A DNA stretch of 58,207 nt from a virus (Duplodnaviria; Caudoviricetes): IMG/VR virus record IMGVR_UViG_3300029267_000807, positions 1 to 58,207 of that record; one strand, 5' to 3'. Below the pieces are notes generated by a model. The model was not told where the DNA came from. It made no database searches and was given only the letters and a program-made list of their open reading frames with translations. Of the stretch, positions 2,773-40,152 are shown in pieces. The position numbers were made by a program, and so were the translations under genes. Numbering within the stretch: the stretch's first letter is position 1; every line of letters begins with the position of its first letter.

Positions 2773-3306
2773 TCAGTGTTTCCAGCCCCCGATTTCGACC
2801 CGCCAAATGGATCCGGCGGCTTGAAATATGATATATCCATGCATTTGAAGGTGAACCAGGATCCGGAAAATCTTGTTGATATCGTCGTTCGTGCTATGCT
2901 TGTTCCCGGCTTCCCAGACGTCGAACGTCCGCCAGCGGCGATCGGCGGTTATGCTATAGCCCGAACGGTCGCGGACGATCGGTTCGACCATTTTCCAAAG
3001 GGCTTCGGTTGGCATACAGTGAACGAAGTCAAAGTCCCCGTATGGCTTGAAGTACAGGCGATCCGGCGATTCGATCCAGGTTTCCGGGACCTTGACAAGT
3101 TCGTCCCCGCGGGCTTCGTATCGGGTTATGTTCCGTCCCCAGTCCAGGACGTTCCAGGCGATCGCCCATTCCTGAACCTGTTTCGAATAGCGGCGGCGAT
3201 CGATCGGGCGAATCGAACCCATGGCGCGCTTTTCCAGAAGGCGAACGATCTGTTCGATTTCGCCGTCTGTGAAATTGTAAACTGAAAATCTGTTTCCGGT
3301 TTGCAT
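2773..3306 (-). CDS. Hypothetical early protein
   Basis: MQTGNRFS...; sole gene between cassettes B and A. Confidence 0.75.
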   Translation of the reverse strand: MQTGNRFSVYNFTDGEIEQIVRLLEKRAMGSIRPIDRRRYSKQVQEWAIAWNVLDWGRNITRYEARGDELVKVPETWIESPDRLYFKPYGDFDFVHCMPTEALWKMVEPIVRDRSGYSITADRRWRTFDVWEAGNKHSTNDDINKIFRILVHLQMHGYIIFQAAGSIWRVEIGGWKH

Positions 3307-12595: not shown

Positions 12596-13219
12596 ATGAA
12601 GCCGGAATTTTCAGCCCCGGGCGTTCGACTGTATAAAGGGAACTGTCTGGACGTCCTTCGCGGGTTCAGCGAACGGATCGACATTACGGTCGCGGATCCC
12701 CCTTACGGTTGCGGAAAGGCGGACTGGGATTATACGTTTCCGACGGCATGGTATTCGTTGGTCCGGGCGTTGTCCCGAACGGTTGTTGTCATAACGGGAT
12801 CGTCGGGACTTTATGACAGCGTCCCCCTGGTTGGCGACAACTTTGTCGACGTGATCGCGGCATGGAACAAAAACGGCATGACGCGCGGTCCCCTGGGATA
12901 TGGGAACTGGCTTGCGGCGGTTATTACGGGCGAAAAGCCGCGAATGGGACAGAATTTCTTTTCCTTCGCTGTTTCAGGCGATAAGCCCGATCATCCTACG
13001 CCAAAGCCCCTGGAATATATGATCAAGCTGATCAAACGGGTATCGAACGAAGGCGACGTTATCCTGGATCCGTTCATGGGTTCGGGGACTTGCGGCGTTG
13101 CTTGCGTAAAGACCGGACGGGACTTTGTCGGGATCGAACTGAAGCCCGAATACTTTGACATGTCATGCGGTCGAATTGCGGACGCGATTCGGACCGGGCG
13201 TCAACTAGCGTTTGTATAA
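12596..13219 (+). CDS. N4-cytosine/N6-adenine DNA methyltransferase (beta class)
   Basis: DPPY...HPTPKP...DPFMGSGT...GIE. Confidence 0.9.
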   Translation: MKPEFSAPGVRLYKGNCLDVLRGFSERIDITVADPPYGCGKADWDYTFPTAWYSLVRALSRTVVVITGSSGLYDSVPLVGDNFVDVIAAWNKNGMTRGPLGYGNWLAAVITGEKPRMGQNFFSFAVSGDKPDHPTPKPLEYMIKLIKRVSNEGDVILDPFMGSGTCGVACVKTGRDFVGIELKPEYFDMSCGRIADAIRTGRQLAFV

Positions 13220-14622
13220 TGCCAGAAGTCCATGTGTTTGGGAAGATCGAAACCGAAGAACAGCTTCGGGACTTTGTGTTCCAGGCGTTCGGCGTCCGGG
13301 TTCCGGACGTCCGGGTTTGCGAAGACCATACAACCCCATGGCGCGCGTTCGCGGACGCGTATTTCGCAAGGTCCCCGAACGCTGTCTGGAAGGCTTCGCG
13401 CGGTTTCGGCGGAAAGTCTTTCCTTCTGGCGCTGTTGGCGCTGACCGAAGCCCTAACACTGAAATGTAATGTAAACGTCTTGGGCGGGTCCGGCGAACAG
13501 TCCGATCGGGTCCTGGAATATACGTCCGATTTCTGGCATGCCGGGACCGTATCCCATTACCTTGTCGGCGAAGTCAAGCATGAAACCCGGCTGATCTTTG
13601 GGAATCACATTCGATCGCTTATGGCGTCTTCCCGATCGGTTCGCGGTCCGCATCCCCAGCGGCTTCGGCTTGACGAATGCGACGAAATGGACGAATCGAT
13701 CCTGAACGCGGCGCTGGGGCAAACCATGCGAAAGCCCGGGCTGGACGTCCGTCCTCAGAACGTCATGTCTTCGACGCATCATTACGCGGACGAAACGTTC
13801 ACAAAGATTCTCCATAGGGCGAATCAGGAAGGTTGGCCCATATACGAATGGTGCTATCGGGAAAATCTTCAGCCCCATGGATGGCTGGACCCCCTGGACG
13901 TCGAAGAAAAGAAGGCGACTGTCACGTCCGCCATGTGGCTTGCGGAATATGAACTTCAGGACCCGGCCCCCGGGTCCCGGGCGATCAACGTCGACATGGT
14001 CGCGAAAATGTTCGATCGGTCCCTGGGCGAATATCGCGGGTCCCCGGGCGAATATATCGAAATCGAACCCCCCTGGATCACATGCCGGGAATGCGGCTGG
14101 GTTGGGTTCCAGAACGGCGATCGCTGTTCGAAATGCGGGTCGACAAAGATCCGGGTTTCCGGGCGATACGGAACGGGCGCGGACTGGGCGCGAAAACAGG
14201 ACTGGACGGTCATCATTACATGGCGCTGGGACGTGAAACCCTTCCGGCTTGTCGCATTCGAACGGATCGGGCGGTTGCCATGGCCCAAGATGATCGAACG
14301 GCTGAACGTTCGGCATAAGCGTTACCCAGGCGGCGCGGCGCATGACGCGACAGGCGTCGGGGACGTCGTTCGCGATTACCTGTCGACGTCTGTAAAGGAC
14401 GTGATCATGGTTGGCGCGCGGCGTTCGGACATGCTGACCGAATATATCGCGGCGATCGAGCGCGGGGACTTTGTCTGTCCCCATATCGACTTCATGGAAG
14501 CCGAACATAGACTGGCTTCGGTTGACGACGTCTTTCGATCGGGGACGTCGTTTCACCTTCCGGACAGCATATCAGCGGGCGCGCTGGGGCTGTACGGGAA
14601 GACGGGAATCCTGATCGGATAG
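13219..14622 (+). CDS. terL: Terminase large subunit
   Basis: Walker A ASRGFGGKS, Walker B LRLDECDE, nuclease GADWA...D...HDATGVG...D; CxxC...CxxC insertion. Confidence 0.9.
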   Translation: MPEVHVFGKIETEEQLRDFVFQAFGVRVPDVRVCEDHTTPWRAFADAYFARSPNAVWKASRGFGGKSFLLALLALTEALTLKCNVNVLGGSGEQSDRVLEYTSDFWHAGTVSHYLVGEVKHETRLIFGNHIRSLMASSRSVRGPHPQRLRLDECDEMDESILNAALGQTMRKPGLDVRPQNVMSSTHHYADETFTKILHRANQEGWPIYEWCYRENLQPHGWLDPLDVEEKKATVTSAMWLAEYELQDPAPGSRAINVDMVAKMFDRSLGEYRGSPGEYIEIEPPWITCRECGWVGFQNGDRCSKCGSTKIRVSGRYGTGADWARKQDWTVIITWRWDVKPFRLVAFERIGRLPWPKMIERLNVRHKRYPGGAAHDATGVGDVVRDYLSTSVKDVIMVGARRSDMLTEYIAAIERGDFVCPHIDFMEAEHRLASVDDVFRSGTSFHLPDSISAGALGLYGKTGILIG

Positions 14623-15358: not shown

Positions 15359-15448
15359 GAAAGCTGACCGGGCCGAATCGCGCGAAGCGGACAGATATCA
15401 CCCGGATCGCGAATATGCGATCCGGGCGTTTGTGTTATAGGGGACTTC

Positions 15449-16801
15449 ATGACCTTCGCGGAACGAATCAAAGCGGCATGGCGGGCATTGACGTTCGATT
15501 CCCCCGTCAAGTCGACAGCCCCATTGTTCTTTCCTTCGTATCGAACCGGGCGTCCTTTGTGGACGCTTTATGATTATGCGTCATTTGTGAACGAAGGGTT
15601 CAGTCTAAACGCGTTGATCTATGGCGCGATCATGTACAAAGCGCGGGCGCTTACTTCGGCCCCCTTGAAGGCGTACACTGGGGACATGGACGCGCGCGAA
15701 GAGGTCGACCCTAACGATCCTTTGGCCTTGTTGGTCAGTCGACCGAACGAACACCAAAGCATGATCGAATTCCAACAGCAAGCAACCGTTTACCTGAACA
15801 TAAGCGGAAACAACTACACTTACTTGAAGCGGGTCGCGGGCGACGAAATCGAAGCCATGTATAACCTTCGACCGGACCGGATCAAGATCGTTCCGGGCGA
15901 ACGGGACATAAAGGGATATCGCTACATTCCGGAAGGCGCGACATGGGAAGAGGGCATGCCGATCCTTCCCAAAGACATGATCCATGTCAAGTTCACGAAC
16001 CCCCTGGACCCCTTGGAAGGCATGGGACCCGGGCTGTCCCCCATTTCAGCCCTTGCGCGGAATGGCGACGTCGACAATGCCGTTTCATATTTCCTGAAGA
16101 ACCTGTTCGACCGCGGTCTTATGCAAAACGTATTTATAAAGTATTCGGTCCCCTTGACGGACGAACTGATATCGTCGGCAAAGGAACGTTGGCGCGAAGC
16201 TTACGGTGGATCCCAGGAAGGTTGGCTTGATCCGGTTGTCCTGGGCGAAGAAGGGGAAGTGAAGGCACTGGGATATCAGTTCGATCAACTTGGCTTCGAC
16301 GGGATCGACAGTCGGAATGAAACGCGGATCCTGGGTCCCTTCGGCGTCCCCCCGATCTTGATCGGGTCCCGGGTTGGGCTGGACCGGGCGACATACAGCA
16401 ATTATCAGGAAGCCCGTCAAGCGTTCTGGGAAGACACATTCGTCCCGGAACTTCGGCTTTTTGAAGTTGATTACGCGTATCACCTGAACAGTCCGGATCG
16501 GGACGTCTGGGTCGCGTTCGATATGACGGAAGTCCCGGCGCTAAAGTCGGACGTCGTTCCTTTAGTGAACGCGGCGCACCAACTATGGACCATGGGCGTT
16601 CCGGCGCTGTCGGCGCTGGGCGCGGTTGGGCTGAACGTTGGGGACATTCCGGGCGGCGACGTTTCCTATTTGCCCCTGGGACTTGTCCCGTCCGGGCGAC
16701 TGGGAAGCGAACAGGCGGATCAAAGTTCTTCGGCGGCAACGGCTGAAGAAGAAGATCGGGACAAAGGCACCTTACCAACAGGTAAAAAAAAAGACGTCTG
16801 A
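15449..16801 (+). CDS. Portal protein (HK97 family)
   Basis: LLVSRPN, GNNY, LRPDR, GLSPI, FGVPPILIG, ATYSNY motifs. Confidence 0.92.
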   Translation: MTFAERIKAAWRALTFDSPVKSTAPLFFPSYRTGRPLWTLYDYASFVNEGFSLNALIYGAIMYKARALTSAPLKAYTGDMDAREEVDPNDPLALLVSRPNEHQSMIEFQQQATVYLNISGNNYTYLKRVAGDEIEAMYNLRPDRIKIVPGERDIKGYRYIPEGATWEEGMPILPKDMIHVKFTNPLDPLEGMGPGLSPISALARNGDVDNAVSYFLKNLFDRGLMQNVFIKYSVPLTDELISSAKERWREAYGGSQEGWLDPVVLGEEGEVKALGYQFDQLGFDGIDSRNETRILGPFGVPPILIGSRVGLDRATYSNYQEARQAFWEDTFVPELRLFEVDYAYHLNSPDRDVWVAFDMTEVPALKSDVVPLVNAAHQLWTMGVPALSALGAVGLNVGDIPGGDVSYLPLGLVPSGRLGSEQADQSSSAATAEEEDRDKGTLPTGKKKDV

Positions 16802-18564
16802 AGTATCGTCGGCTGACAGGAAGGCGGCGGGCGGCTTATGGCAAGTCGATCGATAGGATCGCGACGAAATACGAACCCGCGTTCGCAAAGTCCGCGACCG
16901 AAGCGTTCGAAGCCGATCGGCGCGCTGTTCTGGCGGCGGTTTCCAAAGCAAAGGCGGACGCATTCGCCCAGAAGCAAAGCGTAAACTATGAACAGATCAA
17001 GATCGACTGGGACGATTACTTCCGGATTCAGGGCGAAGCGGGGATCAACTGGCGGAAATCGTTCATGCCCCAGGTCCGGGCGCTGTTTACGGACGTTGCA
17101 GACTTTCAGGCGGCGGCGCTGGGCATGCGGTTCGACGTGGCGAACATGCTGGCTTCCGAATGGGTTCAACAGTATCACATGGTCTTTGCCCAGCCAGCTA
17201 TGGACACAACGATCGCGGACCTTCAGAGCCTGATCGCCCAGGCGCAAAACAACGGCTGGACGATCGACGAAATATCGAAGCAGATCGACGCGACGTTCGA
17301 CTATTACTTGATCGGGGAAGAAGCCGGGAAAATCTGGCGCGAAATCATGACCGATCAAGAATTCCAGTGGTTCTTTGATCGGAAGCCGCGACCCCGGCGC
17401 GACTTGATCGCGCGGACCGAAACCATGCGGGCGTCGAATGCCGGGACGTATAACCTGTATATGGAAAGCGGCGAAGTCGAACTGAAGGAATGGTTGGCGG
17501 CACATGACAGGCGAACCCGGGACACACATGTCCAGGCGGACGCGACGTATCGCGAAGGCGGGTCGATCGGTCCGATTCCCATGAATGAACCCTTTATCGT
17601 CGGCGGGTTCCAAATGATGTATCCCCTTGACGGGTCCATGGGCGCGGACATTCGGGAAATGGCGAACTGTCGCTGTACTATGGCCCCAGTTCTTTACGAA
17701 TTCGAAGAAGAGGAACCCCAGCCGGAACAGGTCAGTCAACCGACATTCGAAGAGGTCCGGGACAGTCTGGCGCGGATTCGACAGGTTTCGACCGAAGTCA
17801 TCGGGGACCTTACGCGCGAACTTGAAGAATTGCGCGCGCGATCGAATGCGCGATATGACGAATGGATTCAGGGGGAACAGGCGGGCTTTTCGGAAGGACT
17901 TCGCGGCATTCTGAAGGATAATTACCTTCAGGCTTCCCAGGAAGCTTCAGCCGTCTGGACGCGTCTTCAGGAAGTTCGAAAGATGGCAAAGGAACAAATG
18001 CATGACGCGATTCGGATCCCGGCGGATCAGCGATCGGACTTTGAATTCACAACCCGAATTCGGAAGGCGGATCATCGGCGAACCCGGGTTCAGACGGTGG
18101 CGGAATGGCTGAACACAGTTGTTTCAAGGGACGTTCAGCCGGACCGGGTTACAGTGTATAATACGACGGACGATCGCGCATTTCACATGGGCGGCGGAAA
18201 GAAGTCCGGGATCCATATTTCGAAACATGCTGGGGAAACGACGATCGCGCATGAATGGGGTCATCGGATCGAATACGATAACCCGGACATTCAGGAAAAG
18301 CGGGCGAAGTTCTACGAACGACGAACCGCGGGCGAAGCCGAAGAAAGGCTAAAAGACGTTACAAGCCTGAATTACGACGACTGGGAAGTCACGAAGAAAG
18401 ACGACTTCATTGATCCTTATATCGGGAAGGTTTATCGCGGGCGCGCATCGTCTTCAGAAGTGATCAGCATGGGCATACAGTATCTTTATGACGATCCGGC
18501 GGAATTCGCGGAAAAGGACCCGGACATGTTCGACTTTGTTTTAGGCGTAATCAGGGGACAATGA
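16786..18564 (+). CDS. MuF/gp7-like head morphogenesis protein with C-terminal HExxH metallopeptidase-like extension (first ATG 17065; frame open from 16786)
   Basis: IARTETMRA, KEWLAAHDRRTRDTH, NCRC; then AHEWGH and EVISMG. Confidence 0.85.
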   Translation, partial: KKRRLKYRRLTGRRRAAYGKSIDRIATKYEPAFAKSATEAFEADRRAVLAAVSKAKADAFAQKQSVNYEQIKIDWDDYFRIQGEAGINWRKSFMPQVRALFTDVADFQAAALGMRFDVANMLASEWVQQYHMVFAQPAMDTTIADLQSLIAQAQNNGWTIDEISKQIDATFDYYLIGEEAGKIWREIMTDQEFQWFFDRKPRPRRDLIARTETMRASNAGTYNLYMESGEVELKEWLAAHDRRTRDTHVQADATYREGGSIGPIPMNEPFIVGGFQMMYPLDGSMGADIREMANCRCTMAPVLYEFEEEEPQPEQVSQPTFEEVRDSLARIRQVSTEVIGDLTRELEELRARSNARYDEWIQGEQAGFSEGLRGILKDNYLQASQEASAVWTRLQEVRKMAKEQMHDAIRIPADQRSDFEFTTRIRKADHRRTRVQTVAEWLNTVVSRDVQPDRVTVYNTTDDRAFHMGGGKKSGIHISKHAGETTIAHEWGHRIEYDNPDIQEKRAKFYERRTAGEAEERLKDVTSLNYDDWEVTKKDDFIDPYIGKVYRGRASSSEVISMGIQYLYDDPAEFAEKDPDMFDFVLGVIRGQ

Positions 18565-19290: not shown

Positions 19291-20397
19291 ATGGGCGCGA
19301 AAGAACATAAAACGGTTGACGGGCTGATTACGGAAATTGACGAAACCCAGGGCATTGTCAGGGCGATTTTCGCCGTCATGGGTAACGTCGACAGCGGCGG
19401 CGATCGCATTCACCCGGGCGCATTCACAAAGACCTTCGCGGAACGCGGGTCCCGGGTCCGGATCCTGGATCATCACAACACCTTCAGCGTCCGGGACGCG
19501 ATCGCGAAGCCCCTTCGACTTCGGGAAATCGGCGCGTCTGAACTTCCCCCGGAAGTCTTGTCAAAGTTCCCCGAAGCGACGGGCGGCGCGGAACTGACTT
19601 CGAAATTCATGCTTGACGACGACGCGTCCATGGCAATTTTCCGGCGGATCAAAGAAGGCGTTGTGAATGAATGGTCCTTCGGATATGACCCCCTGGACTT
19701 TGACTATTCGAAGGAAGAGGTCGACGGACAGGAAGTGACGGTCCGGAACTTGCGGACTTTGCGGCTTTGGGAAGTATCCCCCGTCCTATGGGGAATGAAC
19801 GAAGCGACGTCGACGACGGGCGTCAAAGATGACAACCCAGACGCTGAAGACAAGGCGACCGAAGAGAAACCATGGGACGTCTTTGTCGAAGGCGATCAGT
19901 ATTGCGTTTACAAGATCAATGAGGATGGGGAAGCCGTTGGGGAAAGCCTGGGCTGTCATGATACGGAAGACGAAGCGGTCGAACAGATTCAAGCCCTATA
20001 CGCGGCTGAAGAAAACGCAAAGACCCTTGTCCCCATTTTCCAGGCGGCATGGGCGGCTGAACAGGACTTGAAGCGGCTGGGCGAACTTGTCCAGGCGGCA
20101 AAAGAAGGGCGCGTTTTATCGGCGCGGAACGGAACGCGGATCGCGAATGCCGTTCTAGCGTTGGTCGAACTTTTGGAAGACGCTGGGATCGACGTCCCCG
20201 GACTTTCGGCTTCGGTCGAAGAAGAAGAGGAAGACGATCCCGGAAAGTTGGCGGCGGATTCACCTTTCAAGGGAAAGGCCGATTCAGCCGAACAGCATGA
20301 CGACGTCGGTCGGGCCGAAGATGATTCACCTTCCGAAGCGGACATGTTGACGCGGATCAACCTGTTGGAAGCAGAACTAAAAATCATAGGAGTATAA
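19291..20397 (+). CDS. HK97-type prohead protease with C-terminal scaffold-like extension
   Basis: GNVDSGGDRIHPGAF, LDHH, WSFGY, LWEVSPVLWGMN; GRVLSARN. Confidence 0.92.
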   Translation: MGAKEHKTVDGLITEIDETQGIVRAIFAVMGNVDSGGDRIHPGAFTKTFAERGSRVRILDHHNTFSVRDAIAKPLRLREIGASELPPEVLSKFPEATGGAELTSKFMLDDDASMAIFRRIKEGVVNEWSFGYDPLDFDYSKEEVDGQEVTVRNLRTLRLWEVSPVLWGMNEATSTTGVKDDNPDAEDKATEEKPWDVFVEGDQYCVYKINEDGEAVGESLGCHDTEDEAVEQIQALYAAEENAKTLVPIFQAAWAAEQDLKRLGELVQAAKEGRVLSARNGTRIANAVLALVELLEDAGIDVPGLSASVEEEEEDDPGKLAADSPFKGKADSAEQHDDVGRAEDDSPSEADMLTRINLLEAELKIIGV

Positions 20398-20399
20398 CC

Positions 20400-21740
20400 A
20401 TGGCTGAACAAATGATGATCGTGGGCGATCGCGTCGACGAACTTCGGAACGAAGGTCAGAAGCTGATTCACGACGCGAAGGAAATCTTTCTGAACGAAAA
20501 GGCGGACGCGCAAGATCGGGAAAAGGCAACCCGCATGCTGGCGCGGGTCGACGAAATCAAGGGCGAAATCGACAGCCTTGTCCAGATCGCCGAATCGGAA
20601 CAGGCCCTTATGGGGACCGCGAAGGTCGAAAATCGCGGCGGCGATCGTCCGGCAAAGCAGATCGGTTCGCTGGGTCGGCTGTTGGTCGAAGTGTTCAACG
20701 CTGAATTTGGGCGCGGCAAGTCGGTTCACCCTGGGCTGAAGCGTTGGCGCGACGCGGAAGAACCCGCGGTCGACGAAACGAAGATCGGCTGGGTTGAACC
20801 CGGCGACAGCAAAGACCTTCTGGAATCCGTTGGCGCGTCCGGCGGATATCTTGTCCCAGTACAGCAAGGCGAAAGCCTGTTGGTTCACCCGGGCGGAACG
20901 GACAGCGTCGTTACCCCGCGGGCAACCGTGATCCCGATGCGGCGTCGACAGATCCAGCTTCCGGCGCTGAATCAGGGCGCGACGACAGCCGGACAGCCCC
21001 ACTGGTTTGGCGGGATCATCGCCAAATGGACCGAAGAAGCGGCTGAAAAGGACGAAACCCAGCCGTCCTTCAGGCGGATCAACCTGACCGCATTCAAGCT
21101 CGCTTTATATACTGAAGCGGGCGACGAATTGCTTATGGACAATGCCGTTTCGCTGGAAGCGTTCCTGAATTCGGCATTCGGCGGCGCGATCGACTGGTAT
21201 AAAGAACATGCCTATATCCAGGGGACGGGCGCTGGACAGCCACAGGGGATTATCCCCGCACCTGGGACGATCACGATTCCCCCGGCGGCGATCGGCGCGA
21301 TCGCGGTTTCGGACTTTGCGGACATGCTGGAAGCCTTTGTCGGGCGTTCCCCGATCTGGATGATGTCGCGACAGTGGATGTCTGACTTGATTCAGTTGAA
21401 CGGTCCGGCTGGGAATCCGTCCTATGTCTTCATGCCGTCGGCGCGCGACGGCGTCCCCAGTTCGCTGTTCGGGTATCCTGTTTTCTTCAGCGAACACATG
21501 CCGCAACCCGGCGAAGTGGGATCCGTGGCGCTTTGCGACTGGTCGAAATACCTGATCGGGGACCGACAGGCGGTTACGGTTGACGCTTCGAAGCACTTCC
21601 GGTTCCAGAACGACTTGACGGCATGGCGCGCTGTTTCTCGGGTTGGCGGGCGACCGTGGCTGGATCTTCCGTTGACGTACAGCGACGGAACGACCCAGGT
21701 TTCGCCGTTCGTGATCCTGGGAATTCACCCGACTTCATAA
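20400..21740 (+). CDS. Major capsid protein (HK97 fold, delta domain)
   Basis: GGYLVP, WTEE, GTGAGQPQGI, LFGYPV, FQNDLTAWR; AGGAG RBS. Confidence 0.95.
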   Translation: MAEQMMIVGDRVDELRNEGQKLIHDAKEIFLNEKADAQDREKATRMLARVDEIKGEIDSLVQIAESEQALMGTAKVENRGGDRPAKQIGSLGRLLVEVFNAEFGRGKSVHPGLKRWRDAEEPAVDETKIGWVEPGDSKDLLESVGASGGYLVPVQQGESLLVHPGGTDSVVTPRATVIPMRRRQIQLPALNQGATTAGQPHWFGGIIAKWTEEAAEKDETQPSFRRINLTAFKLALYTEAGDELLMDNAVSLEAFLNSAFGGAIDWYKEHAYIQGTGAGQPQGIIPAPGTITIPPAAIGAIAVSDFADMLEAFVGRSPIWMMSRQWMSDLIQLNGPAGNPSYVFMPSARDGVPSSLFGYPVFFSEHMPQPGEVGSVALCDWSKYLIGDRQAVTVDASKHFRFQNDLTAWRAVSRVGGRPWLDLPLTYSDGTTQVSPFVILGIHPTS

Positions 21741-37644: not shown

Positions 37645-40152
37645 ATGGGATACTGGAAGATCGTCGTTCCCGAAGAAGGGTTCAACAAAGTTTTGTCCCC
37701 CAGCGGCGAAACGGGGAACATTCCGACATATTTCACGGCATACAACGGCGCGGTTGCGGTAAGTCGCTATTCCCTGGACGCCTTTCGTGGCTTTCAGTGT
37801 TATCAGATCAACACAAACGGCGTAAATCAGGGTGTTACGCTGAACCTGTCGACCCTTGCGAATGCCGATCACTATATTACCTTTGCGCTGAAGAATCCCC
37901 CCAGCGGAAACCCGGCGTCCCCGGGCGTTCAAGCATATATGAACGGCGCGGCACCAACATGGGAAAACCCACAACTGCTTTATACGGGCTTTGACGGCGA
38001 CTGGCATTTGTACGGGGTTCCCTATGTCGCGGCGAAAGCGAACGGCGCGGGCTTTCTGACCTTCCGGACAACTGTCGGCGGAAACATTTACTGGTATCTT
38101 GATCGGGTTCAGGTCGAACAAAAAAACTACTGGACAACGTACATGGACGGCGATCAGCCGGGTTGTGAATGGGAAGGCTTTGCCCATGCCAGTGTAACGC
38201 GGCGATCGGCGCTGTCCCGGGCTGGGGGAAGGGTCCGGGATCTGTCGGAAGTGTATCATTTCGATATCGAATCCATGGACGGCGCGGGGCTTCCCCCTAA
38301 CGAAATACGGTCCTTCGAATTCGCCCTTTCCCCAGGCGGCGACGTCCCCCAGATCCGCGATACCATGCGACCCTTTACCTTGACGGGCGTTTTGGAAGAC
38401 CCCGGGTCCTGGAACAGCCTGGAAGACGTCCGATTGATCCGAAGGGACTTGATCGAAATTCTGAAGGGCGATTCGTTCCCCCTGAACCTGGGACGTCCCC
38501 AGCCCGTTCGTTTATGGTACACTGAAGGATCGGATTATCCCCCGCGTTACATCGATCTTCATTATGAAGAAGGGCTTCGGTTGGCTGTCCATGGGACCTT
38601 CCCTTGTTCGGAAGTTCTGGCGCTTCGTTTTCTGGCTGAAGACCCCTATTTCTACGAAATAAAGGACTTTGCGCGATCGCTTTCCAGGCGCGAAACGCTG
38701 TTGAACACCCAGCTTGTCTATGGGCGGATCAAAGACGGCGAAATTTGGTCGAACCTGGGTCCCCCGAATGCCGCGGGGACCTATACGTCGATCAACGCGA
38801 TCGTCTTTGGCCCAGACGGGAAGCTTTATGTCGGCGGAAACTTTACCTTTTTTGACGCGATCCTGGGCGCTGATTACTTGTGTCGATATGATTTTCAAGC
38901 CGCAACATGGGACCTTGTCGGTCCGGCGGGTTCAGTAAATGGAATCGTCGACGCGTTGGCGGTCGGACCAAACGGGCTGATCTATATCGGCGGACAGTTC
39001 ACGAACCTGGGCGGCGCGAACGGGGACAGCTTTTCAAGCTATGACCCCGCGACAAATACTTATGCCGCGGTTGGCGACATAACAGGCGCGGGCGTTGCAA
39101 CGCTGACAACCGTAAACGATATAGACTTTGCCAGCAACGGCGACATTTGGATCGTCGGGAACTTTCTGAACGTTGGCGCGAACCCGTCCGCGGACTATAT
39201 CGCGCGATACGACTATTCTGTCGGCGGCTGGAATACCCCGTTCGGCGCGGCACCTGCGACCGCGACCATGTATGCTTGCGTTGTCGATTCCGACGACTAT
39301 GTCTGGGTTGCGGGATCCGCGGCGAACCTGGGCGGGCTGGGCGCGAACGGGAACTATATCGCGAAGATATTTCAGGGCGTCATGTATCAAGCGGTCCCGG
39401 GCGGCGCGAACAGCGTTGTAAATGCGTTGGAACTGGGGGACGATCAATCGGTTTATGCGGGCGGAAACTTCACGACGCTGGGCGGAAATACGGCATGTAA
39501 TTACATCGGGCGCATTCTGGCGGGTCAGGCGTTCGATCTGGATTCTGGAACAAACGGGCGGGTTTGGAACATTCACAAGGCCCCCGACGGTATGCTTTTT
39601 GTGTCCGGCGTCTTTTCGGCGGCGGGCGTTTTGTCTGTCGATCGGGCGGCGGCATGGAACGGGTTTACATGGGTCCATGTCCCGGTTTACCGCGGCGCGG
39701 GGACGGTCTACGAAATGACAACCGGAATTCCGGACCCGACAACTAGCGAACGTTATGATCTGTTTTTCGGCGGAACCCAGACGGGGACCGTTTACGCGGG
39801 TAGCAGAACGGCGATCACATATCCTGGGACCCAGGCGACAAGGCCCCTATTTCGTTTCTACGATCCAACAGGGAACGCGGACTTGTATCTTTTCCGGAAT
39901 GAAACGCTGGGCGCGGACCTTTACATGGACTATAGGGTCAGAAATGCCGAAGATTTCCGCGTCGATCTTCGACCCGGGAAAGTGTTAGTCTACAGCGAAT
40001 TTGCTGGAAGGAAACCCGGCGCGATCCTTCCCGGAAGCGATATCGAAGAGTTTAGAGTTATCCCCGGGGAAAACATAATCAGCATGTTTACCCCGCACTC
40101 TTCCGGGTCCCCCTTTATCAGCATGCCGATCTGCTATGGAAGTGTTGACTAA
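37645..40152 (+). CDS. Distal tail (Dit-like) protein with inserted carbohydrate-binding/beta-propeller region
   Basis: FLAEDPYF; repeated LYVGGNFT/IYIGGQFT blades; PGEN near C-terminus. Confidence 0.75.
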   Translation: MGYWKIVVPEEGFNKVLSPSGETGNIPTYFTAYNGAVAVSRYSLDAFRGFQCYQINTNGVNQGVTLNLSTLANADHYITFALKNPPSGNPASPGVQAYMNGAAPTWENPQLLYTGFDGDWHLYGVPYVAAKANGAGFLTFRTTVGGNIYWYLDRVQVEQKNYWTTYMDGDQPGCEWEGFAHASVTRRSALSRAGGRVRDLSEVYHFDIESMDGAGLPPNEIRSFEFALSPGGDVPQIRDTMRPFTLTGVLEDPGSWNSLEDVRLIRRDLIEILKGDSFPLNLGRPQPVRLWYTEGSDYPPRYIDLHYEEGLRLAVHGTFPCSEVLALRFLAEDPYFYEIKDFARSLSRRETLLNTQLVYGRIKDGEIWSNLGPPNAAGTYTSINAIVFGPDGKLYVGGNFTFFDAILGADYLCRYDFQAATWDLVGPAGSVNGIVDALAVGPNGLIYIGGQFTNLGGANGDSFSSYDPATNTYAAVGDITGAGVATLTTVNDIDFASNGDIWIVGNFLNVGANPSADYIARYDYSVGGWNTPFGAAPATATMYACVVDSDDYVWVAGSAANLGGLGANGNYIAKIFQGVMYQAVPGGANSVVNALELGDDQSVYAGGNFTTLGGNTACNYIGRILAGQAFDLDSGTNGRVWNIHKAPDGMLFVSGVFSAAGVLSVDRAAAWNGFTWVHVPVYRGAGTVYEMTTGIPDPTTSERYDLFFGGTQTGTVYAGSRTAITYPGTQATRPLFRFYDPTGNADLYLFRNETLGADLYMDYRVRNAEDFRVDLRPGKVLVYSEFAGRKPGAILPGSDIEEFRVIPGENIISMFTPHSSGSPFISMPICYGSVD

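Follow-up and report, generated by a model that had tools for sequence, protein, structure and literature searches.

The virus contig IMGVR_UViG_3300029267_000807 (Duplodnaviria; Caudoviricetes), which was analysed over its complete length of 58,207 nt (GC content about 0.56) and is called the window in the following, contains a portal gene and, directly behind it in the -1 frame, an open frame for a MuF head protein that lacks a start codon at its beginning. Our analysis suggests, with a probability of roughly 0.8, that the two frames are connected by programmed -1 recoding at a run of nine adenines (A9), either by ribosomal frameshifting and/or by slippage of the RNA polymerase. Under this reading a 450-aa portal protein would be produced together with a minor portal-MuF fusion of 1038 aa. 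Recoding at this position had been proposed in an original prediction, and it is now supported by homology across the junction, by the conservation of tract and frame offset in relatives, by purifying selection on the stretch without a start and by the presence of A9 in four assemblies.

Anatomy of the portal-MuF junction

The portal gene is located at 15449-16801 in the zero frame of the plus strand, as are all features described below with respect to strand. According to the list of open reading frames (ORFs) and the translation it encodes 450 aa with the C-terminus TLPTGKKKDV, and its 3' end reads GGT (16781) AAA AAA AAA GAC GTC TGA (16799-16801). The A9 run at 16784-16792, which forms the portal-frame codons AAA AAA AAA, is part of the candidate recoding signal T-A9-G (16783-16793). 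A scan of the portal frame for heptamers identified the slippery heptamer A_AAA_AAA of the X_XXY_YYZ type at 16786-16792, in phase with the portal, whose codons provide its AAA AAA; this agrees with the -1 slippery heptamer named in the original prediction. A TAA stop of the -1 frame (16783-16785), composed of the T and the first two A's, shuts the MuF frame directly upstream of the tract. The portal stop TGA (16799-16801) is situated two codons past the tract and overlaps the MuF-frame Leu codon CTG (16798-16800). Together, the TAA of the -1 frame and the portal stop confine the frame change to 16 nt (16786-16801), which hold the tract only.

From 16786 onward the MuF frame, -1 with respect to the portal, is open for 592 codons, with the stop ending at 18564. 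Its earliest ATG, GTG or TTG is the ATG at 17065, exactly 93 codons past 16786, and the N-terminal part between 16792 and 17064 (91 codons, RRLKYRRLTGRRRAAYGKSIDRIATKYEPAF...) contains none of these three codons. The portal end, the tract, the TAA, the open frame and the late first start had all been predicted with exact coordinates, and the ORF list agrees with the claim that neither GTG nor TTG precedes the ATG. The MuF frame has the properties of a downstream ORF for a -1 frameshift: it is offset by -1, opens before the upstream ORF has ended and has no start of its own. One uninterrupted portal-MuF ORF was not found; the halves are in different frames, and a single chain therefore needs recoding. 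Public gene callers placed the MuF gene at 17065-18564 (499 aa from ATG 17065, protein P0003), which is probably a truncated gene call.

The window has one further A7 run (38120-38126), within an ORF of 835 codons (37645-40152). Since the frame does not change in its vicinity, it was rejected as a related site.

Homology and selection in the stretch without a start

The portal ORF matched the Pfam family Phage_portal (PF04860) with 1.1e-44 over residues 57-384 (153.4 bits compared with a gathering cut-off of 39.1), and it also matched phrog_12 and the portal profile phrog_2662; the match to TIGR01537 (portal_HK97, 8.5e-28) was below the cut-off of this family. For the -1 frame a match to Phage_Mu_F (PF04233) was obtained with 1.3e-11 over residues 146-299 (17221-17682; 45.7 bits compared with a cut-off of 29.6). 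Homology is not restricted to the part behind the ATG. The head morphogenesis family phrog_2468 matched the -1 frame from residue 22 onward, upstream of ATG 17065, and the 717-position profile phrog_2662 matched the window portal with positions 37-441 and the MuF protein with positions 622-711.

A protein search with the -1 frame as query was performed against 5.8 billion proteins and 10 were found. Among these, P0003 is the window's own gene call (499 aa, 100% identical over 84% of the query) and P0004 belongs to a clade mate. Four of the next matches, P0005, P0006, P0007 and P0009 (717-823 aa), comprise both the portal and the MuF Pfam domain and are in-frame fusions; the nearest homologues of the MuF part outside the clade are thus in-frame portal-MuF fusions. 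The window portal aligns with the first halves of these four proteins at 38-46% identity, and the -1 frame aligns with their linker and MuF N-terminus from about residue 6-9. This argues that coding starts within a few codons of the tract. The question raised in the original prediction, whether MuF homology extends upstream of 17065, can be answered in the affirmative, as it reaches to about 6-9 codons from the tract.

Comparisons between related lineages (loci with L numbers) revealed that differences in the stretch from the tract to the first start are mainly located at third codon positions of the MuF frame. Within this stretch L092 and L116 differ at 6, 4 and 25 sites by codon position, with 19 synonymous and 9 non-synonymous codons; 12 synonymous and no non-synonymous changes separate L010 from L202, and the window differs from L001 by 3 synonymous changes and 1 non-synonymous change. 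A pattern of mainly synonymous, third-position change indicates that the stretch is translated, and judged from these comparisons it is under purifying selection in the -1 frame.

Portal-MuF junctions in related phages

For a survey of the junction 250 loci were fetched, consisting of viral contigs, metagenome contigs and one genome contig, which together with the window gave 251 sequences. Portal and MuF matches on one strand were present in 143 of the 251, and 100 junctions were left after removal of identical ones. In 21 of the 100 junctions MuF is in the -1 frame and the frame changes at an A run; 9 junctions have MuF in the -1 frame but no A run, and 7 have it in the +1 frame. In-frame fusions accounted for 59 junctions, 50 without an A run of at least 7 and 9 with such a run, in line with the statement of the original prediction that natural portal-MuF fusions exist. 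In the last 4 junctions, which have distant portals and own starts, both genes share the frame with a stop between them.

The 21 junctions with an A tract and a -1 offset show a common organization. The tract is A9 in 18 and A7 in 3 of them, a T precedes A9 in 18/18 and a G follows the tract in 19/21. The portal-frame stop is located 1-9.3 codons past the tract (19/21), and the first ATG, GTG or TTG of the MuF frame appears 23-91 codons past it (18/21). The 21 junctions are distributed over several separate clades. Eighteen of them are outside the window's own clade (L001, L002), with portals that are 45-56% identical to the portal of the window. Two further loci, L105 (A9) and L109 (A7), have the same arrangement but are cut by the contig end and are additional to the 21. 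The T at the 5' side of A9 is constant whatever the codon phase; it creates the TAA of the -1 frame in phase 0, but not in phase 2.

The nucleotide composition of the tract is also conserved. Outside the tract, Lys codons are distributed between AAA and AAG as 11:31 in the window, 4:27 in L092 and 176:300 in 17 loci, and the tract is always all-A although these genomes prefer AAG for Lys. In 14 of 14 tabulated loci the A9 or A10 at the junction is the sole A/T run of at least 8 in the locus.

Three additional junctions without a homopolymer contain classic heptamers in phase, C_CCA_AAA in L093 and C_CCT_TTC in L096 and L112; in each of them MuF is offset by -1 and its homology begins upstream of any start. 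A conserved slippery site with a conserved offset, which the original prediction had suggested to look for in related phages, is therefore present in 21 of the 100 junctions with an A tract and in three more with classic heptamers. L229 had been considered as a second case of C_CCA_AAA and was dropped as ambiguous, with a portal-like C-terminal motif and possible starts upstream in the MuF frame.

The 11-mer CCCTTTCGTGG is located at the junction of L008 (2943-2953), L096 (1871-1881) and L112 (1450-1460), that is in 3 unique loci of the 250; L182 also matches, but it duplicates the contig of L008. With the CCT TTC codons as reference, MuF is in the -1 frame in L096 and L112 and in phase in L008. 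In L008 (2934-3010), L180 (3860-3940) and L021 (2960-3010), with portals of 50-52% identity, MuF is in the +1 frame and no homopolymer is present. The frame changes in L008 and L180 at CGT CCC TTT CG, which reads Pro-Phe in both frames, and L021 has CCC TTC there. These +1 junctions may be due to a +1 shift on the proline codon of CCC_U or to indel errors.

Some in-frame fusions still bear an A9 tract (L011, 2996-3004; L012, 408-416; L013, 821-829). A shift out of frame, whichever its direction, would terminate within 9-22 codons in L012 and L013, and the +1 frame ends at a TGA within Leu-Thr codons in L012 and within Leu-Ser codons in L013. It is possible that the tract of these two loci acts in reverse, with slippage giving a portal-only product.

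In the genome collection a single relative was detected, L170, an in-frame fusion in an Aggregatilineales metagenome-assembled genome. A blastn search of the region against 50,697 phage records gave no match, and tblastn with the MuF frame matched 19 of the phage records, all restricted to residues 482-590; no isolate with this junction is thus at hand.

The junctions also bear on the question whether MuF is made as a separate protein, either by initiation or termination-reinitiation at a non-canonical codon by the portal stop, e.g. CTG 16798-16800, or as a truncated MuF from ATG 17065. The ATG is the start chosen by public gene callers (P0003). The near-start codons close to the tract in the MuF frame are all CTG. 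At the portal stop, CTG and TGA share bases as CTGA, much as start and stop do in the ATGA of coupled genes; TTGA is found at the equivalent place in L005, L091 and L174 and CTGA in L116. In the inspected junctions the portal stop mostly coincides with or adjoins a Leu codon early in the MuF frame, and in 5 of 10 other A-tract junctions it is on Leu-Thr (TTGAC in L005, CTAAC in L017 and L010, TTAAC in L092 and L101; L116 has CTGAC). However, the overlapping codon is not kept as a start, being TTA in L092 and L101 and CTA in L017 and L010. Since TTA and CTA cannot initiate, it is no conserved start. The lack of ATG, GTG and TTG for 23-91 codons in 18 of the 21 tract lineages argues in the same direction, and the sole Shine-Dalgarno-like bases near CTG 16798 are AGG at 16780-16782, 15 nt upstream. 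Initiation at 17065 is opposed by the residues before this ATG, which are homologous to fusion proteins and under purifying selection. Separate MuF genes begin with ordinary signals just behind the portal stop, namely GGAGG followed by ATG in L196 and GTG two bases past the stop in L117. A separate MuF would also leave the all-AAA tract in AAG-preferring genomes unexplained, and we consider its synthesis improbable.

Phylogenetic distribution

In a tree of the MuF domain with 50 rows the A9/-1 state requires 5 changes, with a minimum of 4 enforced by well-supported branches, and it is interspersed with in-frame fusions; in a tree with 83 rows 12 changes are required. On these trees the state was either gained repeatedly, or it was kept for a long time and lost repeatedly. 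Both histories would imply selection.

Proposed mechanism

According to the favoured reading, the portal and MuF genes of this HK97-like phage would be decoded as a single unit by programmed recoding. Most ribosomes would read GGT AAA AAA AAA and stop two codons further on, which would yield the 450-aa portal. The longer product could arise by two routes. In the first, a tandem -1 slip of the lysine tRNAs would take place on A_AAA_AAA at 16786-16792, with AGA (16792-16794) as next codon. In the second, the RNA polymerase would add one A within the run, and MuF would be in frame on that mRNA. Either route would connect portal residues 1-448 with residues 3-592 of the MuF frame, giving 1038 aa by arithmetic from the translations. 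The fusion would co-assemble into the portal dodecamer. At the DNA-exit vertex a set fraction of the portal subunits would then hold MuF, with the HExxH cargo domain at its C-terminus, within the capsid; the prohead protease of the phage may release MuF later. The occurrence of the shift, its efficiency and its stoichiometric role are inferred. A shift of roughly one in ten would correspond to about one MuF per portal ring.

The chances that the ribosomal or the transcriptional route dominates are about even, and both are expected to contribute on A9. For the ribosome speaks the heptamer A_AAA_AAA in phase: all A7 tracts (L010/L202, L221, L109) are in the sole phase that gives it, and the junctions of L093, L096 and L112 have in-phase classic heptamers, the -1 offset and no start in the absence of a homopolymer. 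For the polymerase speaks the strong preference for exactly nine A's, seen in the window itself and at 18 of the 21 junctions with a tract, as well as the occurrence of T-A9-G in either of two codon phases (phase 0 in 11 rows and phase 2 in 10, A7 rows included) and additionally in the in-frame fusions L011-L013. The missing stimulatory RNA structure described below was counted toward the polymerase as well, and so was the transcriptional slippage on an A9 run in Thermus dnaX (PMC3711429).

We also formulated a broader proposal, to which we give slightly better than even odds. The portal-MuF linker of a large uncultivated group of HK97-like phages would be a recurrent recoding hotspot, in which at least three -1 signals (T-A9-G or A7, C_CCA_AAA and C_CCU_UUC), and possibly a +1 signal at CCC_U, became fixed in separate clades. 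The system would be the equivalent of Gag-Pol in phages: the ejected MuF cargo, in the window with a zincin-like end, would be borne by only a set minority of the portal subunits. The in-frame relatives with A9 or A10 may represent the reverse situation, with the fusion as default and slippage leading to free portal.

Length of the A tract and counter-evidence

The length of the tract was judged from assembled contigs, and rare length variants within reads lie below that resolution. L001 and L002, viral contigs from two other metagenomes, have the identical A9 and frames; the portal is 99% identical to that of the window, and the C-terminal part of MuF is diverged. The stretch is present in 7 sequencing runs. 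Contigs from four of four runs (3 studies) span 16300-17300 with 0 gaps and show A9 in each case; two of them are possibly the source of the window, and one represents a strain with 28 substitutions and an unchanged A9. The A10 tract by which the original prediction would have been refuted was not encountered at contig level, since A9 was present without indel in 4/4 runs.

Several observations weigh against programmed recoding or its proposed role. The original prediction had called the A9 run unusual. It is indeed the sole A/T run of at least 8 in the 58-kb window, but dinucleotide-preserving shuffles lead to an expectation of 5.6 A8 matches compared with 2 observed (both from the A9 run), and an A9 run somewhere in 58 kb is not improbable from composition alone. 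What is beyond chance is not the existence of the run, but that it lies where the frame changes and that relatives have conserved it. No stimulatory RNA structure, and no structure in common, was detected when 90 nt downstream and 45 nt upstream of the site were folded for 10 lineages (20 folds; z from -1.54 to +1.33). Stimulatory elements are usual at -1 frameshift sites, but they are not obligatory. In L005, L091 and L174 a TTG follows 2-4 codons past the tract and is a possible start. None of the 7 sequencing runs with the stretch is listed as an RNA run. The 59 in-frame fusions among the 100 junctions, 50 of them without a tract, indicate that a sub-stoichiometric fusion is not a general requirement, and with half of the relatives being constitutive fusions a full ring of fused subunits is viable in the family. 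MuF proteins of at least 450 aa occur at 11 of 25 recoded junctions compared with 1 of 43 plain fusions (Fisher p=2.7e-5), but in phylogenetically independent pairs this association is not significant (median p 0.5), and we treat a link between large cargo and a sub-stoichiometric fusion as no more than a lead. Finally, two pairs of close relatives differ in frame. L014 has A10 (2998-3007) and is in frame, whereas L017, which is 98.4% identical, has A9 (2999-3007). L222 and L225 (99.88% identical) have the same A9, but L222 contains a 1-nt insertion, an additional C some 70 nt before the tract, which brings MuF back into frame; L222 had been scored as in frame. Both pairs indicate that variation at the DNA level or assembly errors also occur at this junction.

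An artefact or decay, that is a homopolymer error that hides an A10 in-frame fusion or a MuF gene inactivated by a frameshift in a defective phage, would fit the error-prone nature of homopolymers, the in-frame fusions as closest homologues outside the clade and the difference between A9 and A10 in one close strain pair. It is nevertheless very improbable in view of the independent assembly of A9 in the window, in L001, in L002 and in the contigs of 4 runs from 3 studies, including the strain with 28 substitutions. The offset is common to 18 A9 junctions in diverged lineages, the MuF frame is free of stops over 592 codons, and the changes in the stretch without a start are mostly synonymous.

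The close pairs could also reflect phase variation at a hypermutable tract, where A9 genomes would make the portal only, A10 genomes the fusion only, and the population would be mixed. Passages in Antonov et al. (2013, PMC3711429) describe slippage of poly-A runs in replication, and besides the pair L014/L017 an in-frame A10 is found in L064 and an in-frame A8 in L212. Such a switch is hardly to be reconciled with the distribution of the tract: among junctions with a tract of 9-10 nt, 18 have A9 and the -1 offset compared with 2 with A10 in frame, and for the phage of the window all four run contigs have A9. The A9/-1 state is inherited across lineages that are about 82-84% identical at the nucleotide level (L092, L101, L116), with MuF intact and constrained. 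The heptamers without a homopolymer at the same junction cannot serve as DNA switches, and replication slippage is presumably too rare to give a mixed portal ring in one infected cell. Phase variation thus appears to be an improbable explanation, and programmed recoding is preferred.

The C-terminal extension of MuF and the neighbouring genes

The MuF protein of the window has a C-terminal extension of 280 aa. Its last 172 residues (18046-18561) form a domain with the motif HEWGH at 18250-18264, for which a confident AlphaFold2 model with a pLDDT (predicted local distance difference test) of 81.6 was obtained. In 5 aligned sequences the H, E, G and H of HExGH are invariant. A Foldseek search of the model against the PDB gave no match at E<=0.001, and the best weak matches were mostly zinc metalloproteases. 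The sequence search of the PDB with the MuF frame yielded 0 matches, and Pfam assigned no family to the C-terminal 283 aa; a sub-threshold match to ParD was disregarded. Considering the HExGH motif and the weak fold matches of the model, the domain is possibly a zincin-like metallopeptidase cargo. A terminal module of about 105 aa is also found at the end of structural proteins in 19 phage records. Identities of 41-45% were obtained for proteins of Planktothrix phage PaV-LD, of Bacillus phage vB_BboS-125, of a Flavobacterium phage and of 13 prophage records from Streptococcus pyogenes.

The genes of this region follow the order terminase large subunit (13165-14622; phrog_2, 4.8e-10), portal, MuF, head maturation protease (19291-20397; phrog_80, 2.1e-31) and major head protein (20400-21740; phrog_10, 4.2e-45), with MuF directly after the portal. 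Promoter-like or terminator-like sites were not found from 15427 to 18045 on the plus strand. A DNA methyltransferase-like ORF (12596-13219; phrog_67, 2.3e-44) immediately precedes the terminase gene and overlaps its start by 55 nt.

Relation to known systems

To our knowledge, the shift in the tail assembly chaperone genes G/GT is the one frameshift that is widely recognised as conserved across tailed phages. In common with the recoding proposed here, this shift (Xu, Hendrix and Duda 2004, as cited in PMC7302621 and PMC7911831) is of the -1 type, conserved and placed close to where a structural ORF ends, with a major short product, a minor product extended at the C-terminus, overlapping frames and conservation across very diverged phages. 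Unlike G/GT, portal and MuF belong to the head module, the signal is mostly a fixed T-A9-G, and half of the relatives are plain in-frame fusions.

The second parallel is dnaX, where, according to passages in PMC3711429, tau and gamma depend on a ribosomal frameshift at A_AAA_AAG in E. coli and on transcriptional slippage on 9 A's in Thermus thermophilus; slippage of the RNA polymerase is described there for A runs above 7. An A-rich heptamer or A9 run, a shared N-terminus and a set ratio of products are common to both systems, and ribosomal and transcriptional routes are used in different lineages. In contrast to dnaX, where the shift makes the shorter product, it would make the longer one here; the in-frame loci L011-L014 could work in the dnaX way. 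An internal Shine-Dalgarno element or a stimulatory hairpin of the dnaX kind was not found at the junction.

Concerning the products, the arrangement resembles Gag-Pol of retroviruses and totiviruses as treated in parts of the review by Atkins et al. (2016, PMC5009743): a minor protein is fused to a structural protein by frameshifting, at a fixed low copy number, and is perhaps released by a protease. Here, however, the virus is a bacterial double-stranded DNA virus and the carrier is the portal instead of the capsid protein, so that the analogy is one of logic and not of ancestry.

In-frame portal-MuF fusions are mentioned for the Microbacterium phage clusters EA3, EA5, EA8 and EB in a section of PMC7302621. 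These fusions and phrog_2662 have the same two domains in the same order with a linker; in the window the halves are instead in different frames. Portions of the work of Jamet et al. (2017, PMC5576092) state that muf genes directly follow portal genes and that 20% of the putative MuF toxins have a metallopeptidase domain. With such polymorphic toxins and long MuF proteins the window shares the N-terminal MuF domain right after the portal gene and a variable C-terminal extension, but its C-terminal domain has no Pfam family and the peptidase fold is weakly indicated.

The original prediction knew of no programmed frameshift at the portal-MuF junction, and full-text literature searches did not reveal a paper on frameshifting or slippage between these genes either, the passages of two candidate papers being concerned with other genes; supplementary tables were outside this search, and priority is not fully excluded. 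The word "frameshift" is absent from the main text of Jamet et al. (2017) and "portal" from the main text of Antonov et al. (2013), which deals with GeneTack, and neither "portal" nor "MuF" was found in the excerpts of the review by Atkins et al. (2016).

If programmed recoding holds true, the portal-MuF junction would be a second conserved recoding site of tailed phages, located in the head module, and it would provide a genetic explanation for the low and fixed copy number of an internal protein bound to the portal. For annotation it means that the MuF protein of the window has been called 93 codons late, and other relatives without a start probably have similarly truncated calls. With fused, frameshifted and separate states and several slip signals in one family, the junction offers a natural experiment on the gain and loss of recoding sites. 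It is also relevant to the question how cargo or toxin-like domains at the C-terminus are loaded by phages and delivered together with their DNA.

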